NCBI GenBank assembly: GCA_947381415.1
Contig: CANCVB010000011.1
Coordinates: 3,518-67,517, forward strand
Origin: Burkholderiales bacterium
Lineage (GTDB): Bacteria; Pseudomonadota; Gammaproteobacteria; Burkholderiales; Burkholderiaceae_C
Direction of reading: 5' to 3'
DNA length: 64,000 nucleotides
Below the pieces are notes generated by a model that saw nothing but the letters and a program-made list of their open reading frames with translations, searched no databases and was not told the DNA's origin. Shown here piece after piece: positions 26,653-38,615 of this stretch. Within the stretch, counting starts at the first letter, position 1. Every line of letters starts with the position of its first letter. The position numbers and the translations under genes were made by a program.

Positions 26653-27936
26653 ATGAACGCTGTCACCACCATCCCTGAACTCATGCGCACCTTGGGCCTG
26701 CAAGCGCGTTGCGCGGCAGCAGGCATGGCGCGTGCCACGGCGGCGCAAAAAAACCGGGCCCTGCGGGCGCTGGCGCGCTTGCTGCGCGAACACACGGCGG
26801 CTTTGCAAACCGACAACGCCAAAGACCTGAGCCGCGCCCAAGCCGCTGGTTTGGCCGCGCCTCTGGCGGACCGACTCAAGCTTTCGCCGCAAACCTTGGA
26901 AACCTGTGCGCTGGGTTGCGAGCAACTCGCTGCCATGCCCGACATCATTGGCAGCATCAGCGGCATGAGCCAGCAGCCCAGCGGCATCCGCGTGGGGCAA
27001 ATGCGCGTGCCCATTGGCGTGTTTGGCATGATTTACGAGAGCCGCCCCAACGTCACCATCGAAGCGGCGTCACTCGCCATCAAGAGTGGCAACGCCTGCA
27101 TCTTGCGCGGCGGCTCCGAGGCCATCGACTCCAACAAAGCCTTGGCAGCGCTGGTGCAGCAAGCCTTGGCAGAAGCCGGCCTGCCCACCGACGCGGTGCA
27201 ACTCGTGCCCACCACCGACCGTGCGGCCGTGGGTGAACTCATCACCATGCCCCAGTATGTGGACGTGGTCATTCCGCGCGGCGGCAAGGGCTTGATCGAG
27301 CGCATCAGCCAAGACGCCAAGGTGCCGGTCATCAAGCATTTGGACGGCAACTGCCACACCTATGTGGACGACCCCTGTGACCTCGACATGGCGTTGAAAG
27401 TCGTTGACAACGCCAAGACACAGAAATACAGCCCTTGCAACGCGACAGAAAGTTTGTTGGTGGCCCGTGGTGTGGCGGCGGCGTTTTTGCCGCGCATCGG
27501 CCAGGTGTTGGCCGACAAAGGTGTGGAGATGCGTTGCTGCCCTGAAAGCAAAACCTTGTTGCAAGCTGTCAAGGGCGCGGTGCTCAAAGACGCCACCGAG
27601 CAAGATTGGTTCGAGGAGTATTTGGCGCCCATCATCAGCATCAAGCTGGTGGACGGCTTGGACGCGGCCATTGCCCACATCAACCACTACAGCAGCCACC
27701 ACACCGACGCCATATTGACGCTGAACCATGTGCACAGCCAGCGCTTCATGCGCGAGGTGGACTCGGCCAGCGTCATCGTCAACGCCAGCACCCGCTTTGC
27801 CGATGGTTTCGAGTACGGCTTGGGCGCCGAGATTGGCATTTCCACCGACAAATTCCACGCGCGTGGACCCGTGGGCATCGAGGGGCTCACCTCGCTGAAG
27901 TATGTGGTGTTGGGGGCGGGGGAAGTGCGGGGGTGA
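26653..27936 (+). CDS. proA: Gamma-glutamyl phosphate reductase
   Basis: [34 protein letters not shown] motifs. Confidence 0.97.
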
Positions 27937-30828: not shown

Positions 30829-31533
30829 ATGCGCCGCGCAGACCGTTTGTTTCAGATTGTCCAACTCATCCGAGGTCGCCGCCTGACCACGGCCCAGTGG
30901 CTGGCGCAGCGGCTAGAGGTATCCGAGCGCACGGTGTACCGCGATGTGGCTGACTTGCAATACCAAGGTGTGCCGATTGAAGGGGCGGTAGGAGTGGGCT
31001 ACCGTTTGGGTCAAGGTTTTGAGTTGCCGCCACTGATCTTCACCCCACAAGAGGCGCAGGCCTTGGTGGTGATGACGCGGGTGGCGCAGCAGTGGTTGGA
31101 CCCGGCCTTGGCGCGTGCCAGCGAATCGGCCTTGTCGCGGGTGTTGAGCGTCATGCCTGCAGACCAGCGTCATGCGGCGCAACACACGCCGGTGTATTCG
31201 CCGCCCTGGGGTTTGACACCGGCGCAACAACCGCACTTGCAGCTGTGGCGCGAGGCCACACAAGCCAGTGACAAGCTGGCACTGGTCTACAGCGATGCCC
31301 AAAGTCGCACCAGAGAACGCACGGTATGGCCCTTGGGCAGCTTCTTTTGGGGCACGGTCTGGACGCTGGTGGCTTGGTGCGAAAAGCGCCAAGACTTTCG
31401 CAGCTTTCGACTGGACCGCATCCAGTCCATGCGTGCGCTGGGTCAGCACTTCAAGCTGGTCGATGGGCAGCGCCTCATCGACTATTTGCGCCTGCAAGGC
31501 GTGGACCCGCAGGCCTTGGCCGACGGTCGCTGA
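30829..31533 (+). CDS. HTH-WYL domain transcriptional regulator (YafY-like)
   Basis: N-terminal HTH (LEVSERTVYRD); WYL-type WTLVAWCEKRQDFRSFRLDRI. Confidence 0.92.
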   Translation: MRRADRLFQIVQLIRGRRLTTAQWLAQRLEVSERTVYRDVADLQYQGVPIEGAVGVGYRLGQGFELPPLIFTPQEAQALVVMTRVAQQWLDPALARASESALSRVLSVMPADQRHAAQHTPVYSPPWGLTPAQQPHLQLWREATQASDKLALVYSDAQSRTRERTVWPLGSFFWGTVWTLVAWCEKRQDFRSFRLDRIQSMRALGQHFKLVDGQRLIDYLRLQGVDPQALADGR

Positions 31534-31803: not shown

Positions 31804-32237
31804 ATCACTGGATCGGCGTGGTCAGCCGCTCGCATGTGCTTCGCGGGGTTGCGGGTGGTTTTGCGCAGATGAACCACGGCAAGCAAGCGCCGCTCCAGCG
31901 CATGAAGGCCGGGGATGGGTTGATTTATTACTCACCGCGGGAGGACTATCCCGATGGTGCACCCTTGCAAGCCTTCACCGCTTTGGGGTTCATCCGCACG
32001 GGTGAGGTTTACGCATACGACATGACGGCAGATGGTGTGCCGGGGTTTGTGCCCTGGCGCATCGATGTGGATTTCGTTCCAGCGCAATCGGTGCCCATCA
32101 AGCCCCTGATTGCGCAGTTGGAGTTCATCAAAGACAAAACCCACTGGGGTGCGGCTTTCCGGTTTGGGCAGGTCCGAATTGGCGAAGTGGACTTTCGGTG
32201 CATTGCGCACGCGATGGGATGCATATTGCGGGGATGA
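31800..32237 (+). CDS. EVE domain protein
   Basis: WIGVVSRSHV..G..GF.Q.NHGK, GDGLIYYSP, WGAAFRFG motifs. Confidence 0.85.
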   Translation: MNHWIGVVSRSHVLRGVAGGFAQMNHGKQAPLQRMKAGDGLIYYSPREDYPDGAPLQAFTALGFIRTGEVYAYDMTADGVPGFVPWRIDVDFVPAQSVPIKPLIAQLEFIKDKTHWGAAFRFGQVRIGEVDFRCIAHAMGCILRG

Positions 32238-32238
32238 A

Positions 32239-32358
32239 TTAAAGGCCGTCGTCCTTTGATGCAGCCTTGCTTTTTTCTTTGGCTTCAAAGTAAGACGCAG
32301 CCAAAGACATGGCGCACATCAATATGGTGAAGCCAATCACGATATAGACGATATTCAT
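32239..32358 (-). CDS. Small single-pass membrane protein, 39 aa (MNIVYIVIGFTILMCAMSLAASYFEAKEKSKAASKDDGL)
   Basis: Translated by hand; AAGGGA RBS 7 nt upstream; hydrophobic N-terminus and charged tail; below the ORF-track size cutoff. Confidence 0.5.
   Translation of the reverse strand: MNIVYIVIGFTILMCAMSLAASYFEAKEKSKAASKDDGL
32276..32310. repeat. 35-bp direct repeat, copy 1 (TCTTTGGCTTCAAAGTAAGACGCAGCCAAAGACAT)
   Basis: Identical to 38491-38525; contains an internal inverted repeat. Confidence 0.9.
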
Positions 32359-32391
32359 GCGCTGTTCCCTTGTGAATTGAGAAACTCAGCT

Positions 32392-32554
32392 TCATCGTCA
32401 ACGCCAGAACCGATTTGCCGATGGTTTTGAGTACGGCCTGGGTGCCGAGATTGGCATTTCCACCGACAAATTCCACGCCCGTGGACCCGTGGGTATTGAG
32501 GGGCTCACCTCGCTGAAATATGTGGTGTTGGGGGCGGGGGAAGTCAGGGGTTGA
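32392..32554 (+). pseudogene. proA: Second, diverged copy of the proA 3' end
   Basis: Hand alignment to 27773-27936: 12 substitutions and one 1-nt deletion (about 92% identity), ending in TGA. Confidence 0.93.
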
Positions 32555-32557
32555 CGG

Positions 32558-33178
32558 CTAAATCCAAGTGGTTGGTCTGGTTAAGACATACCCATCTGGC
32601 CTAGTCACTTCATCTGGTAATTGCGACTGTCTGAGATGTGCTTCGCCGATGGTAAAAAAACCGTTGGATGCCTTTGACAACTCGTTGGATTTGCGCCCAG
32701 GTGGAAAAGCAACGATCAAGCGCTTAGAAGGAAATTGCCGTCGCAGCGTGGTGACAGGTGTGGTGAGGTCGCTGTCACCTGAAATCAAGATGGCGGTATC
32801 AAAAAGATCTTCGTAGGCATCGGTCAACAGTTGAACCGCCATGTTGACGTCGGTCATTTTTTCTTCATAACTCAACCATTGGGCACCACAGGCATGGCAT
32901 TGCCGAGGTTTTTCCAAGAAATGTCCCCAATGAATATCAAGACCAGATAGGCAAGCCAATGCCTCAAGGTAGGTCGTTTGTCTTTGAATATCGGTTTGGT
33001 TGTTGTTCGTGGAGCGAATGCGTGACGTGAAGTAATGAACTTTGCGCAACTGTTGATCGTGCTTGAGCAGTGCACTTGCCAAAGCCACTAAATTAAGCCA
33101 ATAGAGTTTGCGCCAGCCTTTGCTTTTCATGCCAAAGTAAAGGTTAAAGCCGTCCACATAAGCCACAACGCGTTGCAT
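32558..33178 (-). CDS. NYN (LabA/DUF88, PIN-like) domain RNase
   Basis: YVDGFNLY, EEKMTDVNMA, ISGDSDL acidic motifs and a CHACG insertion; alternative start at 33217. Confidence 0.9.
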   Translation of the reverse strand: MQRVVAYVDGFNLYFGMKSKGWRKLYWLNLVALASALLKHDQQLRKVHYFTSRIRSTNNNQTDIQRQTTYLEALACLSGLDIHWGHFLEKPRQCHACGAQWLSYEEKMTDVNMAVQLLTDAYEDLFDTAILISGDSDLTTPVTTLRRQFPSKRLIVAFPPGRKSNELSKASNGFFTIGEAHLRQSQLPDEVTRPDGYVLTRPTTWI

Positions 33179-33222
33179 GTGAAAACCAATTTCGGTTTTA
33201 AGGGTAAATGGGGACATCGACT

Positions 33223-33251
33223 TTGCACATTTGTCAGGTTTTCCTTATAAA
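33223..33251 (+). promoter_or_regulatory. Sigma70-type promoter divergent from the NYN gene
   Basis: TTGCAC-N17-TATAAA. Confidence 0.6.
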
Positions 33252-33256
33252 ATTCC

Positions 33257-33324
33257 CTCTGTTAACCCCCCCGGAGATCGCATCTCCGGACCGACGCCTC
33301 CCATGTGGAGGCGTTTCTTTTTTT
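33257..33324 (+). ncRNA. Candidate ~68-nt small RNA (two hairpins, the second an intrinsic terminator)
   Basis: Promoter upstream; stems CCGGAGAT/ATCTCCGG and ACGCCTCC/GGAGGCGT followed by TTCTTTTTTT; no ORF. Confidence 0.5.
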
Positions 33325-33493
33325 AAAGACTAAAAAACTAACCCATTTCAGGCTTGCTCTACAAGAGCCCCAAAGGATACATAAAAAATACAAATACAAA
33401 TGTATTTTTAATTTATTTTTACTAATTCAGGGTTCAGCACAAATTCACCCATCGTTGCGACGGGTGTCGCGTTGAGCGCTTCGCTGCAATCTA

Positions 33494-34122
33494 AATGAAG
33501 TAACCGCACAAATACATGGCGGCTGGAGCTCATACGACTGCGGCCACTACCGAAGCGTGGTTCTAGTAACCGCACAAATACATGGCGGCTGGAGCGAAGC
33601 CGATACAGAGGGGTGTTTGTTGCTGTTCTAGTAACCGCACAAATACATGGCGGCTGGAGCGAAGCAAATACAAACAGCCATGGATATTAGTTCTAGTAAC
33701 CGCACAAATACATGGCGGCTGGAGCGATGTAGAGCATTCGGATATTGGTTTCCGTGTTCTAGTAACCGCACAAATACATGGCGGCTGGAGCTGCCATAGG
33801 GTTCTTTCAAATAGTTGAGATGTTCTAGTAACCGCACAAATACATGGCGGCTGGAGCCAAAACCCACCAAGGCAAGGGGTGTGGACAGTTCTAGTAACCG
33901 CACAAATACATGGCGGCTGGAGCCGCCCTCTTGCTCTGTGCACTGGCCGCTGTGTTCTAGTAACCGCACAAATACATGGCGGCTGGAGCTTGATGCAATC
34001 ACTTGATCGTATGTTTCGCTGTTCTAGTAACCGCACAAATACATGGCGGCTGGAGCAAGAACTGTCATAGGTACAGCATTTTTAACGTTCTAGTAACCGC
34101 ACAAATACATGGCGGCTGGAGC
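33494..34122 (-). CRISPR. CRISPR array: 10 repeats of 36 nt (GCTCCAGCCGCCATGTATTTGTGCGGTTACTAGAAC on the minus strand) and 9 spacers of 29-31 nt
   Basis: Nine identical repeats start at 33560, 33625, 33690, 33756, 33822, 33888, 33954, 34021 and 34087, plus an end-degenerate repeat at 33494; spacers are unique; strand inferred. Confidence 0.98.
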
Positions 34123-34131
34123 CGACCCGCT

Positions 34132-35733
34132 TCAAACCTTTGATTGCAAAGGATTTTCTTCAGTTTGGCCATTCGAAAAAAAGGCTTGGTGCAGGTCATG
34201 GTGAGCCTGGGCATGGTGGTTTTTGCACAAAATCTGTACCGCATCAAGTGTGGTGCGCCGCTCTCCTTCGCTGATGGGTCGGGTGTGGTGCACATCCAGC
34301 AAATGCACGGCGGTCACACCGCAGTCTGCGTGCATGCATTGGGGGCCGTGGTGCTTCAAAGCGGCTGCGCGCAGTTGCGCGTTGCGCTCGCGCTGCAAAT
34401 GGGTTTGCAAGACTTCAGCACCCTCTACAAAACCGTCCCAGTCCACATGGAAGCGCTCAGGAATGGCGGGGCGCAAAGCCATGCGAGCGCTTCGGGGGTC
34501 TAGCAGCAGCAGGGTGCATTGGGCGTCGGGGGTGCGCAGCCCTCGGTGCAAGCCTTGGTGGGTGCGGCGCAGCGCCACCACTTGGCTGTCGATGAAGTGG
34601 TTGAGGGCTTGCCCATTCACTGCCATGGGCTGGCCATAAGGCGTTTGCGGGATGACCACGGTTTGCCAGCGCAAGCGGGGTTCGTCCAAGCCCGACCACG
34701 CACCCGCCGCGATCAGTACCCCGCCATCAGGGCAGCGTTGCACAGCATCAGCCAAGGGCTCTTGCGGCATGCGGACCACCGCGTCGGGCAACAACGCACC
34801 CAGTTGGGCGCTCATATGGTGGCTATTGGTCAGCACCAAGCAGGGTTTGGCGGCATGGGCGATGCGCTGCGCCATGGCGTCGTGCGTCAAGGTGTCGGTG
34901 GCCACCTCCACCTTCAGGCTGCCATGCTGTGCGGGGTCGAGGTGGCGGCTTTCGGGGGCGATGGCTTGCAGGCCAAGGCAGCGCACGAAATGGTCAAAAC
35001 GGCCATTGACTTGCAGCGTACCGCTGGTGAAAACACAGCGCGGCACATCGCGCACCAAGGGCTTGAGCATGCGCCCCGGCATGCGGTGCTTGAGCAGCAA
35101 AGCGCCGTCGTCGTCATGACCCACCACTTTGTAGGCCGCAGGGTGGGCCAAGGCATACAAGATGGCACTGGCGGCGCAACGGTCTTCGGCTTGGCTGGCG
35201 TGTTGCAGCACCTTTTGCGCGGCGATCGCCGGTGCCAACGAAGCAGCACCGCAGTCGGCAAGGGTGGCGGCGCTGATGTGGAAGGTGCTGCGCAGATCGG
35301 CGGCATCGGCCAGCAAATCGGCCTCGTCAAACAGCACCACATCACGTTGGCGCAGTTGGGCGTAGCCTGGCTGCAAGCTGTCAATCAAAGCCGCTGCATG
35401 GGTCAGCACCAGCACTTGCGCTTGCATGGCTTGGGTGCGGTGCGTTTGGTAGTCCTGTTCGCTGGCAAAACTGTGGCGGGTTTGCAAAGCCACCACGCTG
35501 ATGGGGTGCGATTCACAGGCCGAGTGAAGTGCAGCGCTTTGCAGGTATTGCTGCATCAATTGTCGCGTGCTCATGGCAATGGCGATGCGTTTGCCCGAGC
35601 GCACCAAGGGAATGCTGTAACCATGGGTTTTGCCCAAACCTGCTGCGGCGCCTGCCAACAAGGGTGGACCAGGGCGCAGCGCGGTCTCGATCAGCTTGGC
35701 ATAGCGCTGTTGCTCAGGGCTGCGAAAACTCAT
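34132..35733 (-). CDS. dinG: DinG-family helicase (Csf4) with C-terminal HNH nuclease, 533 aa
   Basis: AAAGLGKT, DEAD, FTSGTL, GAWSGLD, QGLHRGLR, LLDPR; C-terminal C-x4-C...VHH.RP...LCKNHHAQAH; ATGA overlap with csf2. Confidence 0.9.
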   Translation of the reverse strand: MSFRSPEQQRYAKLIETALRPGPPLLAGAAAGLGKTHGYSIPLVRSGKRIAIAMSTRQLMQQYLQSAALHSACESHPISVVALQTRHSFASEQDYQTHRTQAMQAQVLVLTHAAALIDSLQPGYAQLRQRDVVLFDEADLLADAADLRSTFHISAATLADCGAASLAPAIAAQKVLQHASQAEDRCAASAILYALAHPAAYKVVGHDDDGALLLKHRMPGRMLKPLVRDVPRCVFTSGTLQVNGRFDHFVRCLGLQAIAPESRHLDPAQHGSLKVEVATDTLTHDAMAQRIAHAAKPCLVLTNSHHMSAQLGALLPDAVVRMPQEPLADAVQRCPDGGVLIAAGAWSGLDEPRLRWQTVVIPQTPYGQPMAVNGQALNHFIDSQVVALRRTHQGLHRGLRTPDAQCTLLLLDPRSARMALRPAIPERFHVDWDGFVEGAEVLQTHLQRERNAQLRAAALKHHGPQCMHADCGVTAVHLLDVHHTRPISEGERRTTLDAVQILCKNHHAQAHHDLHQAFFSNGQTEENPLQSKV

Positions 35734-36725
35734 GCCGATGCATGCGCTGGTTCTGCTGCTTGAACAAAGGTCTGACCTTGCGGCGTCCATGCACATTGAG
35801 CCGCTTGCAGACCACCAAAGTCCAGCACCAACAACACCTCGCCATCGGCAGTGCTGAAGCGCACTTGCCCCTTGATCTCGCCGCAACCCCTGGCTTGTTG
35901 CGCACCGATGAACGGTTTTCGGCTCAGGCCGTCAAAGGCGGTGACCAAGGTTTGCAGGTCGAAGGCTTGGGCATGCATCATGGTGAGCTTGCCGCTGAGG
36001 GTGATGCCAGCGGGAATCACTTGCAATTCCAGCAAGTGCTTGGAGTTGTCAGATGTGTCGCCGCCCTTTTGTGTTTTTTTAAGCGCTTTGAGTTCTTCAA
36101 CTTTGGCTGTCAAGGCGTCTATTTTTTCTTGGTCTTTCAGCTTGCGGGCGGCACTCAGTTCGCGCATGCTGAGTTTGATCAAGCCCTCGGCTTTGGAGGC
36201 CAAACCTTGCTTGCCTTGACGCTCATAAAAGCGGTCTTGTTCTGTGTCGTCGAGCAAGCCCATCATGTCTTGGTTGGTGTCCAAGTCGTGTCGAATGTGG
36301 CTGATGTTGTCGGGCAAGACATTGACCGACGGCAAAAGGTGCGAGACATAAAGACGGCTGGCCACCTTCCAGGTGCCAAACAAATCGAGAAACGGGTTTT
36401 GCTGTCGAAATGCGATTTGCTCTTTCAGTTTGATGGCTTCGGGTTCGTCGTCTTCGCTAGGGCGCAGATCTTGTCCCAGTGCCAACAAATATGCATCCTC
36501 CAGCTTGGCTTTGTGGGGGCGCCCGCGCAGTTCGGCGAAAGCAGCTTCGTGGCGCAAGCGGCCCCGCAGTTGCGCGGCGGGGATGTAGACGCTGCGCTGG
36601 TGGCGGCCTTCGGCATCGATGCCACGGGTCAGCAGGGGCAGGCCATCTGTGCCGTGGTGGGTGAAGGTCAGGGGTTGCACGGTGTGCAGGTCGATGGTGG
36701 CAACCAAGGTAAGGCTAGAGGTCAT
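35730..36725 (-). CDS. csf2: Type IV CRISPR backbone subunit Csf2 (Cas7-like), 331 aa
   Basis: VYIPAAQLRGRLRH, NPFLDLFG, Gly-rich IGAQQARGCG; position in the cas operon. Confidence 0.85.
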   Translation of the reverse strand: MTSSLTLVATIDLHTVQPLTFTHHGTDGLPLLTRGIDAEGRHQRSVYIPAAQLRGRLRHEAAFAELRGRPHKAKLEDAYLLALGQDLRPSEDDEPEAIKLKEQIAFRQQNPFLDLFGTWKVASRLYVSHLLPSVNVLPDNISHIRHDLDTNQDMMGLLDDTEQDRFYERQGKQGLASKAEGLIKLSMRELSAARKLKDQEKIDALTAKVEELKALKKTQKGGDTSDNSKHLLELQVIPAGITLSGKLTMMHAQAFDLQTLVTAFDGLSRKPFIGAQQARGCGEIKGQVRFSTADGEVLLVLDFGGLQAAQCAWTPQGQTFVQAAEPAHASA

Positions 36726-36742
36726 GGTGTGGTCTTTCGGGG

Positions 36743-37225
36743 TTATTGAACGATCAAGAGGTTCAGGCCAAAGGCTTTGCCCACCTTGCCAATGCCTTTG
36801 CTCAGGCACAGGGCAAACGCTGCGGGCTCGTTCACTTTCAAAAGGCCGGTGAATTCAGTGGCGTCTAACTTGAAGCGTCTGCCGTCATGGGTTTGCACTT
36901 CTTGCATGCCGGGTGTGATGTGCACGCCGACAATTTCAAAGCCGTGCTTCATGCCTTGTTTGTCCAGCCAAGCCCTGCGACCACGCCAATCAGCCAAAGG
37001 CAGGTATTTGTGTTTGTGGCCGCTACTGAACGACACGCAAGCGGTGGTGGTGAACGCCAACAATTTGCCACTGTCGTAGTGGGGCGGTGTGGCCTCTTCG
37101 GGGCGGATGCGCAGTTGTTGCCCCTCATCGGCCCACAAAGCGGGTTTGCCGTTTCGGTATTGCTCAACAATGCGGTGCAAGGCATAGCCACGCACACGCG
37201 GGGGTTTGTCTATCAAGATGTCCAT
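36743..37225 (-). CDS. cas6: Compact Cas6e-like crRNA-processing RAMP, 160 aa
   Basis: WLDKQGMKHGF, FTGLLKV, GIGKVGKAFG C-terminal Gly loop; ATG after GGAGAA. Confidence 0.8.
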   Translation of the reverse strand: MDILIDKPPRVRGYALHRIVEQYRNGKPALWADEGQQLRIRPEEATPPHYDSGKLLAFTTTACVSFSSGHKHKYLPLADWRGRRAWLDKQGMKHGFEIVGVHITPGMQEVQTHDGRRFKLDATEFTGLLKVNEPAAFALCLSKGIGKVGKAFGLNLLIVQ

Positions 37226-37626
37226 GTTTTCTCCTGGGTGGCGTCGTAGGTGTGGACTTTGCCTTCGCTGCACAAGCGAGCTGCGCGTGGGTCATAGGTG
37301 ACAAACAGGTCCCGAGCGGTCATGTTTCGCTTGCCCAGAGCAAGCAAGATGCATGGATCGCCAGACTGAAGGGCTTCTTTGATGGCGGTTTTGCGCTCCA
37401 TGTCTTGGCGAAAACCAAGCGCAGGTAAGAACTTGAAGTTGGTGGCCACCCATTGCGGTGTGACCACCATCCAACAAGTTTGAATGCGTCTTTGTTTTTT
37501 GCTCTTCTGGATAGTTAGCGACAGACGCAATAGCGTGTCTGCGTCGGTCACAGCATCTTGGGTCTGTTGGTCAGTTGGCAGCAGGCGGTAACCGACATGG
37601 CGCATGAAAAAATCGGGTCCGTTCAT
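37213..37626 (-). CDS. Putative reduced Csf1 (Cas8-like) subunit, 137 aa
   Basis: Coupled between csf3 and cas6; weak Csf1-like segments (CWMVVT, DPCILLALGK); identity is mostly positional. Confidence 0.45.
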   Translation of the reverse strand: MNGPDFFMRHVGYRLLPTDQQTQDAVTDADTLLRLSLTIQKSKKQRRIQTCWMVVTPQWVATNFKFLPALGFRQDMERKTAIKEALQSGDPCILLALGKRNMTARDLFVTYDPRAARLCSEGKVHTYDATQEKTWTS

Positions 37627-37629
37627 GGC

Positions 37630-38250
37630 TCATACCTGTGGCGCAAAACATCGGGTGCGGTTGCGCACATCCCAATAGGGGGCTTTCCAAGCGGCTTCGA
37701 CAGCAACCCAATCGCCGCCTTGTGTCCAGCGCTCAGTGGGCACAGGACGCAAGGGGTCGTCTGCATAGCCCACCACGCCATCCAGTTCGCCAACCTCTGC
37801 ATCCCAGCGAACCACTTCGCCATAGCCTGCGGTTCTGCGCTTACCAATGAAAGGGATGGAGCGCACCACCTCCAACACAGCTTTCATGTCGCCCGTGGCA
37901 TACCACTCGATGGCGTTGGCAACAGTCGCGGTGTAGGCGTTGATGATGTTGCCGGCTTCACGCTGCCTGCCCAAGCCAATTTTCAGGTCACCGTCTTTGG
38001 TGTTGGACTGCAACAGCGCCAACCAATGGGGCGAGTGTTCTGGCCGCATGCTGGCCACAAACGACGCTCGTTGCGTGGCGTGGGCTTCTACCGCAAAGCC
38101 CGAACTGGCAAAGTACAAATCGTTTTCGCAATGCAGCAGGTGGGACACATCACCACAGGCCAAGCTCGACATGAGCAGCGCATCCAAGGTGACGTGACCG
38201 CGCCGAATCACGGGGGTGCGCAAGTGTGCGCGAAGGACAAAAGGATTCAA
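37630..38250 (-). CDS. csf3: Type IV CRISPR Csf3 (Cas5-like), 206 aa
   Basis: TLDALL, EWYATGD, IGKRRTAGYGEV, RPVP, APYW motifs; TTG start after AGGAAG. Confidence 0.85.
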   Translation of the reverse strand: MNPFVLRAHLRTPVIRRGHVTLDALLMSSLACGDVSHLLHCENDLYFASSGFAVEAHATQRASFVASMRPEHSPHWLALLQSNTKDGDLKIGLGRQREAGNIINAYTATVANAIEWYATGDMKAVLEVVRSIPFIGKRRTAGYGEVVRWDAEVGELDGVVGYADDPLRPVPTERWTQGGDWVAVEAAWKAPYWDVRNRTRCFAPQV

Positions 38251-38318
38251 GCATGCTTCCTTTGAAGTTCATGGGCGGTTCAGCCGATGTGTTGAAATGA
38301 GTGGAACTTATAGAAGTA

Positions 38319-38347
38319 ATATTAAGCGAAATACCGATAAATATGAA
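38319..38347 (-). promoter_or_regulatory. Candidate promoter of the cas operon
   Basis: TTCATA-N17-TAATAT on the minus strand within an AT-rich stretch. Confidence 0.35.
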
Positions 38348-38429
38348 ATCTTTAATACGAATTAATGTGTGTTTCCAACCCAAGATCTTTGGGCAGGAAG
38401 GGATGGTCGTGTGAAACGCATGAGCCATG

Positions 38430-38456
38430 AAAAAAGCCAGACGATGGTCTGGCTTT
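38430..38456 (-). terminator. Intrinsic terminator upstream of the cas promoter region
   Basis: 10-bp stem AAAGCCAGAC/GTCTGGCTTT followed by a U-run on the minus strand. Confidence 0.65.
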
Positions 38457-38486
38457 GTCGTTGAGGTTGGGAGGGAATTACAGATC

Positions 38487-38526
38487 GATGTCTTTGGCTT
38501 CAAAGTAAGACGCAGCCAAAGACATC
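38487..38526. repeat. 35-bp direct repeat, copy 2 (38491-38525), inside a perfect 13-bp inverted repeat
   Basis: GATGTCTTTGGCT-N14-AGCCAAAGACATC; core identical to 32276-32310. Confidence 0.9.
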
Positions 38527-38615
38527 ACCATCCAGATAACCAAGCTTTCATCCCCCTCATGCTTGAAGCTGTCAGAATCGGCCCCACATCCAAAATTCAA
38601 ACAGACAAGCGACCC

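Follow-up and report, generated by a model that had tools for sequence, protein, structure and literature searches.

A 64,000-nucleotide (nt) stretch of DNA from a Burkholderiales bacterium (contig CANCVB010000011.1 of assembly GCA_947381415.1; hereafter the window, numbered from its first letter) carries a gene for an NYN-domain protein of the HEC-09 type and, head-to-head with it, a compact promoter-hairpin-terminator unit. The pair lies beside an array of clustered regularly interspaced short palindromic repeats (CRISPR). The features that make up the pair are as follows.

32558-33178, - strand: NYN-domain protein gene of the HEC-09 type, 206 amino acids, with the start placed by the starts of homologues; the open reading frame (ORF) is open up to an ATG at 33217
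33223-33251, + strand: sigma-70-type promoter of the small RNA, TTGCAC-N17-TATAAA, based on the sequence, a consensus scanner and a distance conserved in the family
33259-33324, + strand: predicted ~65-nt small RNA (5' UUAAC-CCCCC, stem 1, linker ACCGA, terminator stem 2, U-tail), based on covariance model R1, covariation and fold, with the 5' end deduced from the promoter
33270-33290, + strand: stem 1, 8-9 base pairs (bp), apex GAU-CGC-AUC, based on compensatory changes
33293-33324, + strand: stem 2 with U-tract, the intrinsic terminator of the small RNA, based on the scanner and covariation

The promoter has its -35 hexamer, TTGCAC, at 33223-33228 and, after a 17-nt spacer, its -10 hexamer, TATAAA, at 33246-33251 (+); the scanner, which read the same site as TGCACA-N18-TAAAAT, detected no other promoter-like site on the + strand of positions 32000-38600. 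From about 33259 the 5' part of the RNA reads UUAACCCCCCC and is followed by stem 1, the linker ACCGA, stem 2 and the T-run. Stem 1, CCGGAGAT/ATCTCCGG, pairs 33271-33278 with 33282-33289 in 8 bp around a CGC loop, giving the apex GAUCGCAUC (GAU-CGC-AUC). The G+C-rich stem 2, (G)ACGCCTCC/GGAGGCGT(T), pairs 33293-33301 with 33307-33315 in 9 bp and, together with the T-run TTTCTTTTTTT at 33314-33324 (+), is the top-ranked terminator-like site of the scanned interval. The + strand RNA folds with -30 kcal/mol (z = -5.7), a value that none of 200 dinucleotide shuffles equaled. Sequence and scanner thereby bear out in every particular the promoter, the two-hairpin unit and the U-run that an earlier note on this DNA had described, and the gap to the array, there given as about 170 bp, measures 170 nt from the end of the unit to the first, degenerate repeat (33494).

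The NYN ORF (32558-33217, -), head-to-head with the RNA promoter, matches PF01936 with 44.9 bits (cut-off 24.2; E 2e-11) and the PADLOC HEC-09 profile PDLC04163 with E 3.3e-94 over positions 1-202 of 203, as a full-length member. Its true start is probably the ATG at 33178 rather than that at 33217, because the 3039 database homologues are nearly all 206 amino acids long and begin MxRV. D22, N25, D123, D140 and D148 do not vary in the homologue alignment, where D150 shows at least 90% conservation (219-amino-acid numbering), and a 36-sequence alignment agrees on the acidic residues; all the conserved residues are present in the window's protein, in keeping with the intact acidic motifs reported before. 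A CxxC motif is conserved in an inserted beta-hairpin. The AlphaFold2 model (mean predicted local distance difference test score 94.6) finds its best Protein Data Bank match in 2qip (VPA0982, a Pfam-NYN-family protein of unknown function; E 9.7e-10), which a sequence profile likewise matches. Fold and residues together point to a predicted metal-dependent ribonuclease (RNase). The G+C content of the gene is 47%, against 54% for the genome.

HEC-09, the Hma-embedded candidate 9, was published as a single NYN/MARF1-like putative RNase with three conserved aspartates, and its description mentions no RNA partner (Payne et al., bioRxiv 10.1101/2024.01.29.577857). In full-text literature searches no paper connected NYN or HEC-09 with an RNA partner, an RNA antitoxin, a type III toxin-antitoxin (TA) system, a noncoding RNA or a structured-RNA motif.

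Conservation, covariation and promoter of the RNA

Among 40 related genomes, the window's intergenic DNA is present only in the window's own genome, and the NYN gene has a distant homologue in just one order-level relative. Because the intergenic DNA lacks a counterpart in these relatives, conservation was sought in metagenomes. Contigs whose NYN proteins are 83-96% identical to that of the window retain the two hairpins almost unchanged amid diverged flanks, and an equivalent architecture with other stem sequences stands upstream of NYN homologues at 41-55% identity, found in genomes of Nitrospirales, Dehalococcoidia, Bacteroidota, Planctomycetales and Clostridiales. A covariance model, R1, was built from nine sequences of six bacterial groups and searched in 80 further metagenome NYN loci (43-65% identity), which with the earlier loci makes 91; its E-values are rough, the calibration having been shortened. 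The covariance check proposed in the earlier note finds the structure kept beside 87 of the 91 NYN loci (43-96% protein identity), mostly at E 1e-7 to 1e-19, and the window copy scores 80.4 bits (E 3e-18). Two of the four loci without a match are contig ends, one has a variant RNA with its own promoter, and the last has an NYN gene disrupted by an insertion sequence. One NYN homologue (L096 2650-3000) is interrupted near its 5' end by an IS4-family element with a DUF4372-type transposase N-terminus, recognised by eye from the translation.

In the aligned R1 hits, 97.8% of cells pair and compensatory changes occur at 16 of 16 pairs; none of 500 shuffles and no slid register came near the observed pairing. 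Both stems contribute, stem 1 with 8/8 pairs compensated (96.9% of cells pair) and stem 2 with 8/8 pairs covarying (98.7%). Because that alignment is fitted to the model, the test was run again on a new MAFFT alignment, whose 33 sequences share only the window's own copy with the nine-sequence seed. RNAalifold returned the identical two helices from it, with 12 of 16 pairs compensated and a ninth covarying pair in stem 1. In 27 of these 33 sequences stem 2 closes with a G-U pair, and since such frequent G-U pairs would be A-C mismatches on the other strand, the RNA strand is that of the U-tract, which in most loci is the strand opposite NYN. The unit is thus a real gene for a predicted structured RNA of ~65 nt, found beside this NYN family in many phyla.

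Three elements are conserved across phyla: a stem-1 apex N-AGY-A closed by covarying pairs, a CCGA linker and a 5' AAC-C(C/A)(C/G)C tract. Sequence variation is confined to compensated stem positions, and the RNA has no variable guide-like segment. The family consensus of the apex is GAU-AGC-AUC or GUG-AGU-AGC; the apex switches repeatedly between these two forms in separate NYN clades, always keeping the N-AGY-A core, and a three-state label (GAU, GUG, other) undergoes at least 14 changes on the NYN tree. We considered stem 1 as an anticodon-stem mimic and dropped the idea, as the loop-adjacent pairs covary and the alternative apex lacks U33. No Rfam 15 family reaches its gathering threshold in the window; a permissive search of 33150-33500 gave at best 18.5 bits against a gathering score of 55, to the terminator only.

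The promoter is a family trait as well. It is of the sigma-70 type, often with a perfect TTGACA and a 17-nt spacer (TTGACA-N17-TAnnnT), and among 88 copies scanned, 71 had a best promoter score of at least 8.5, and for 61 of these the -10 element ends between model positions -5 and +4. The mean best score was 9.5, compared with 7.2 (standard deviation 1.2) for shuffles and 7.1 for the opposite strand. The fixed promoter distance therefore places the 5' end at the conserved (U)AAC and the RNA length at ~65 nt. A conserved promoter in the NYN sense, sought in the spacer and beyond the RNA terminator, scored no better than shuffles. A strong RNA promoter set against an undetectable NYN promoter suggests an excess of RNA over protein.

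Gene layouts and distribution

The RNA is found beside main-family NYN genes in several layouts (89 copies): divergent and upstream in 80, co-oriented and upstream in seven, and downstream in two, with its sequence unchanged throughout. On the NYN tree the seven co-oriented loci group together, with good support, in a single clade inside the divergent ones, which points to a single inversion, with the unchanged RNA persisting through later divergence. Like the co-oriented loci, distant NYN subfamilies, with many members on viral contigs, read promoter, two-hairpin RNA, terminator, Shine-Dalgarno sequence, NYN. A terminator between the RNA and a co-oriented NYN gene is present in these subfamilies and in 7 of the 89 main-family copies; it is absent from the window, where the two genes diverge. 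Duplex energies between the RNA and the NYN translation start region equal those of shuffles (mean z -0.02). The same RNA in all layouts, the lack of complementarity to the start region and the conserved apex, linker and 5' tract therefore argue for a trans-acting, protein-recognised RNA rather than a cis-antisense RNA; most likely it would act in trans on the NYN protein, in the manner of a type III TA system.

The layouts bear directly on an alternative in which the RNA would control NYN at the RNA level and without protein binding, by antisense pairing or transcriptional interference where the genes diverge and as a leader or attenuator where they are co-oriented. NYN has no recognisable promoter of its own, so that transcripts from upstream would carry the RNA's complement, and the gene order of the distant subfamilies is as a leader would require. 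However, an inverted or downstream RNA gene keeps the same sequence, cis-antisense pairing would not require apex and linker nucleotides to be conserved across phyla, the start region offers no complementarity, and orphan RNAs (below) persist with no NYN to regulate. We regard this alternative as unlikely.

At some loci, two or three tandem RNA copies lie upstream of one NYN gene (L015/L016 3665-3899; G042 contig C48 2802-3513). The U-tract of the NYN-proximal copy is weak in L015, so that the copies there may be co-transcribed.

Linkage was also counted in samples of 401 Pseudomonadota and 251 Bacteroidota genomes; in the whole-genome model searches only the best-ranking candidates of each genome were scored, which makes the orphan and co-occurrence counts approximate. 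An RNA gene adjoins 7 of 7 full-scoring HEC-09 genes in the Pseudomonadota and 6 of 6 in the Bacteroidota, and no full-scoring NYN gene with readable flanks lacks the RNA in either sample. In five whole genomes every RNA match adjoins NYN. The two samples further contain two frameshifted NYN genes with an intact RNA and about 13 RNA genes without NYN, two of which keep only the first 18-27 NYN codons. An RNA gene of defined structure, promoter and strand is, in this family, obligately linked to NYN.

Some of the orphan RNAs have other neighbours. Six in Bacteroidota (L165, L174, L179, L172, L167 and L176) are divergent from, and 20-170 nt away from, genes for a PLD-SNF2 helicase, HsdR, Abi_2, DUF3800 or a ClpP-like protease; at these sites the RNA may have other partners, or NYN may have been lost. 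In genome G403 a full-scoring RNA (L102 1417-1573; 66.7 bits) lies 8 nt downstream of a tRNA-Ala(CGC) gene in the same orientation; the gap leaves no space for a promoter, and the vicinity contains no NYN gene. By its position this copy would serve as 3' trailer and terminator of the tRNA-Ala gene.

Two further explanations can be weighed on this distribution. The unit might be a mere promoter-terminator insulator or decoy of a mobile cassette, or else a host-directed small RNA unrelated to NYN. Orphan copies are frequent in Bacteroidota and one copy forms the trailer and terminator of a tRNA gene, as this would allow; a terminator alone, however, would not keep a second hairpin, an apex, a linker and a 5' tract across phyla, and the unit adjoins each of the 13 full-scoring NYN genes in the two genome samples. 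We consider this explanation very unlikely. Alternatively, NYN might be inert on its own and need the RNA as a subunit (scaffold, guide or sensor) to form an active ribonucleoprotein. The same linkage and the same conserved single-stranded motifs would be expected of an antidote and of a subunit, NYN is never found without the RNA, and the published HEC-09 test showed no defence. Yet an antidote accounts better for orphan RNAs and for broken NYN genes whose RNA is intact, a guide-like variable segment is missing from the RNA, and the disparity between RNA and NYN promoters suggests an excess of RNA. On balance a subunit role, too, seems improbable to us.

The CRISPR-Cas neighbourhood and the insertion site

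The surroundings of the pair comprise the following features.

32387-32554, + strand: duplicated 3' end of proA, 92% identical to 27768-27936, directly adjoining the NYN stop codon, the position that the intact proA has in relatives
33325-33471, no strand assigned: AT-rich spacer between RNA gene and array, with a hairpin at 33446-33466 on the - strand; 90% identical to the CRISPR-less locus L005
33494-34122, - strand: CRISPR array of 10 repeats of 36 nt and 9 spacers of 29-31 nt, with a degenerate repeat at the NYN end, from a repeat search
34132-38250, - strand: type IV-A cas operon with Csf3/Cas5 (37630-38250), a 137-amino-acid ORF, Cas6 (36743-37273), Csf2/Cas7 (35730-36809) and CasDinG (34132-35886), from PADLOC and Pfam

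The operon matches the PADLOC profiles typeIV_DinG (Csf4_2_IVA1; 1.8e-40), typeIV_Cas7 (3.4e-32), typeIV_Cas6 (5.4e-23) and typeIV_Cas5 (1.4e-27), and with CasDinG, Csf2/Cas7, Csf3/Cas5, Cas6 and an array it belongs to type IV-A. A Csf1 large subunit was not recognised in the operon, where the 137-amino-acid ORF (37213-37626) has no Pfam or PADLOC match; no cas1 or cas2 stands among the ORFs next to the operon, no search aimed at these genes having been made. The DinG of this chromosomal system is A1-like, and 9 nt separate the dinG stop codon from the first repeat. The position of the degenerate repeat, at the NYN end, makes it probable that the array is transcribed from the cas side, on the - strand.

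The earlier note had raised the possibility that the pair is a protein-RNA module that stabilises or backs up the CRISPR cassette. Such an addiction or back-up function, comparable to that of CreTA, would accord with the distance of 170 nt to the array, with the closest relatives (L010, L011 and L013), which likewise have an array beside NYN, and with the listing of NYN domains among CRISPR-linked auxiliary genes (PMC10910872). The distribution of the pair largely refutes it. Cas genes and repeats occur only in those closest relatives, L010 and L011 with DinG, two repeats and NYN, and L013 with an array; L012 keeps one degenerate orphan repeat. At the same proA-gshA site, loci L004-L009 (NYN 96% identical) and the P0020 contigs (69%) contain NYN and RNA with no CRISPR-Cas, and the 3-kb flanks of the 80 metagenome NYN loci are all free of these cas genes and repeats. 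The spacers have no match in the rest of the genome, hence neither NYN nor the RNA is self-targeted, and the RNA has no repeat- or spacer-like part. A tracrRNA-like (trans-activating CRISPR RNA) or CreA-like identity was rejected on the same ground, the repeat search finding only the array. Nor is the spacer at 33325-33471 a CRISPR-specific leader, as it is found in relatives without CRISPR-Cas too.

The NYN-RNA pair also occurs outside this site. Members P0117 and P0101 occupy the interval from the helicase gene to the methylase gene in Hma systems, an arrangement described in the HEC-09 preprint, and other members of the NYN-RNA family are present on viral contigs. Because the pair stands at the same site without CRISPR-Cas, in Hma systems and on viral contigs, it is, as far as sequence context can tell, an independent tenant of a variable, defence-rich proA-gshA site, and its proximity to the array is incidental. 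From the earlier interpretation we therefore retain an independent small-RNA gene functionally coupled to NYN, in line with its conservation, covariation and own promoter; the CRISPR part, which we judge very improbable, is set aside. Proximity to a CRISPR array is, alone, a poor ground for inferring a functional link.

The insertion site itself is composite. The duplicated proA end is collinear with the proA end in L005, L012 and L205, and a same-genus genome without NYN has only a 275-nt proA-gshA spacer. Clean cassette boundaries could not be drawn from the comparison with this genome: in L005 the 275-nt spacer is replaced by ~1.45 kb with no target duplication. An identical 35-bp palindromic sequence, TCTTTGGCTTCAAAGTAAGACGCAGCCAAAGACAT, occurs twice, at 32276-32310 and 38491-38525, and the proA-end and palindrome pairs interleave around a 4.4-kb island (EamA, LysE, glyoxalase, WYL-HTH, EVE) and the NYN-CRISPR-cas block. 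A related sequence is found in the ancestral proA-gshA spacer of a NYN-less relative. The interleaved repeats and this related ancestral sequence suggest that a single hotspot received nested insertions. An HTH-WYL regulator gene (30829-31533), which strongly matches a CRISPR-associated WYL profile (PADLOC WYL, E 3.7e-64), adjoins the EVE-domain gene of the other inserted island and is 2.7 kb away from the array.

Proposed function and comparison with known systems

Taken together, these observations lead us to lean towards NYN and RNA as a type III-like toxin-antitoxin or abortive-infection module, for which we infer binding, inhibition, toxicity and a role in defence. The proposed module would be self-contained and consist of two genes, one for a putative RNase of the NYN fold and one for a strongly promoted, terminator-ended RNA of ~65 nt. 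As a separate, trans-acting product the RNA would most likely bind NYN through the stem-1 apex, the 5' AAC-C(C/A)(C/G)C tract and the CCGA linker. With the RNA abundant and the protein scarce, bound RNA would hold the nuclease in check, and a drop in the supply or integrity of the RNA, as for example upon phage infection, would release it. A toxin with an RNA antidote is favoured because NYN is never found without the RNA, the RNA outlives NYN, the RNA promoter is strong and NYN expression appears weak or dependent on read-through. A defence role would be in keeping with the members embedded in Hma systems, with the orphan RNAs beside HsdR, Abi_2, PLD-SNF2 and DUF3800 genes, and with the members on viral contigs.

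Several points weigh against this module. Known type III antitoxins are tandem repeats processed by a toxin of the ToxN fold, while the RNA here is a single unit and the protein has an NYN fold. In the divergent layout there may be an antisense component if NYN is read through from upstream (from cas or the array here, from the helicase in Hma systems), since such a NYN transcript would carry the exact complement of the RNA in its 5' untranslated region. In the Bacteroidota sample about half of the RNA genes are without NYN, and the RNA may for that reason have a role or partners beyond NYN. Finally, the published HEC-09 clone, in which the native promoter region was included, conferred no protection from any phage in the test (Payne et al., bioRxiv 10.1101/2024.01.29.577857).

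A further-reaching version would make HEC-09-type NYN proteins obligate RNA-protein immune modules with the RNA as sensor. The nuclease would be licensed when a phage causes the RNA to be lost, cleaved or sequestered, or when a phage RNA or protein displaces it. The many stand-alone RNAs in defence islands would be anti-addiction or cross-protecting antidotes, or partners of other effectors such as PLD-SNF2 helicases or Abi_2. We offer this version as a speculation that has some, if rather small, prospect of proving right.

If HEC-09, hitherto a supposed single-gene defence candidate, is truly the RNA-protein pair that it looks like, then its PADLOC annotation, its cloning boundaries and the negative phage result need revisiting. 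A widespread and strongly covarying RNA family absent from Rfam would, on the same condition, gain a partner and a testable function, and the small set of protein-RNA (type III-like) TA and abortive-infection systems would gain an unrelated nuclease fold and a non-repetitive RNA.

The pair resembles the type III TA systems ToxIN, CptIN and TenpIN in combining a predicted endoribonuclease with a small structured RNA made from a strong promoter, in its defence-island and phage context, and in the two to three tandem RNA copies at some loci. Part of the NYN family moreover shares the order of ToxIN, namely promoter, RNA, intrinsic terminator and nuclease gene, so that the RNA should outnumber the protein. 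It departs from type III systems in its NYN fold, which is not that of ToxN/AbiQ, in its single ~65-nt two-hairpin RNA with its own terminator in place of an array of 34-36-nt repeats, and in the divergence of RNA and nuclease genes at most loci, the window included.

With CreTA and CreR the pair has in common a small RNA gene beside a class 1 CRISPR-Cas locus and the idea of a toxin released upon loss of the system. CreA and CreR, however, contain a degenerate repeat and a partial spacer and act through Cascade, whereas this RNA lacks any repeat-like part; the toxin CreT is an RNA, whereas the partner here is a protein, and the pair mostly occurs without CRISPR. Type I TA systems likewise place a small, strongly promoted RNA beside a potentially harmful gene, with overlap by read-through possible where the genes diverge. 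Unlike in those systems, the partner is a 206-amino-acid enzyme and not a small membrane peptide, complementarity to the start region is lacking, and the RNA is conserved in sequence and kept in any orientation. And unlike HEC-09 as published, a single gene, every intact member of the family analysed here is accompanied by an adjacent conserved RNA gene.

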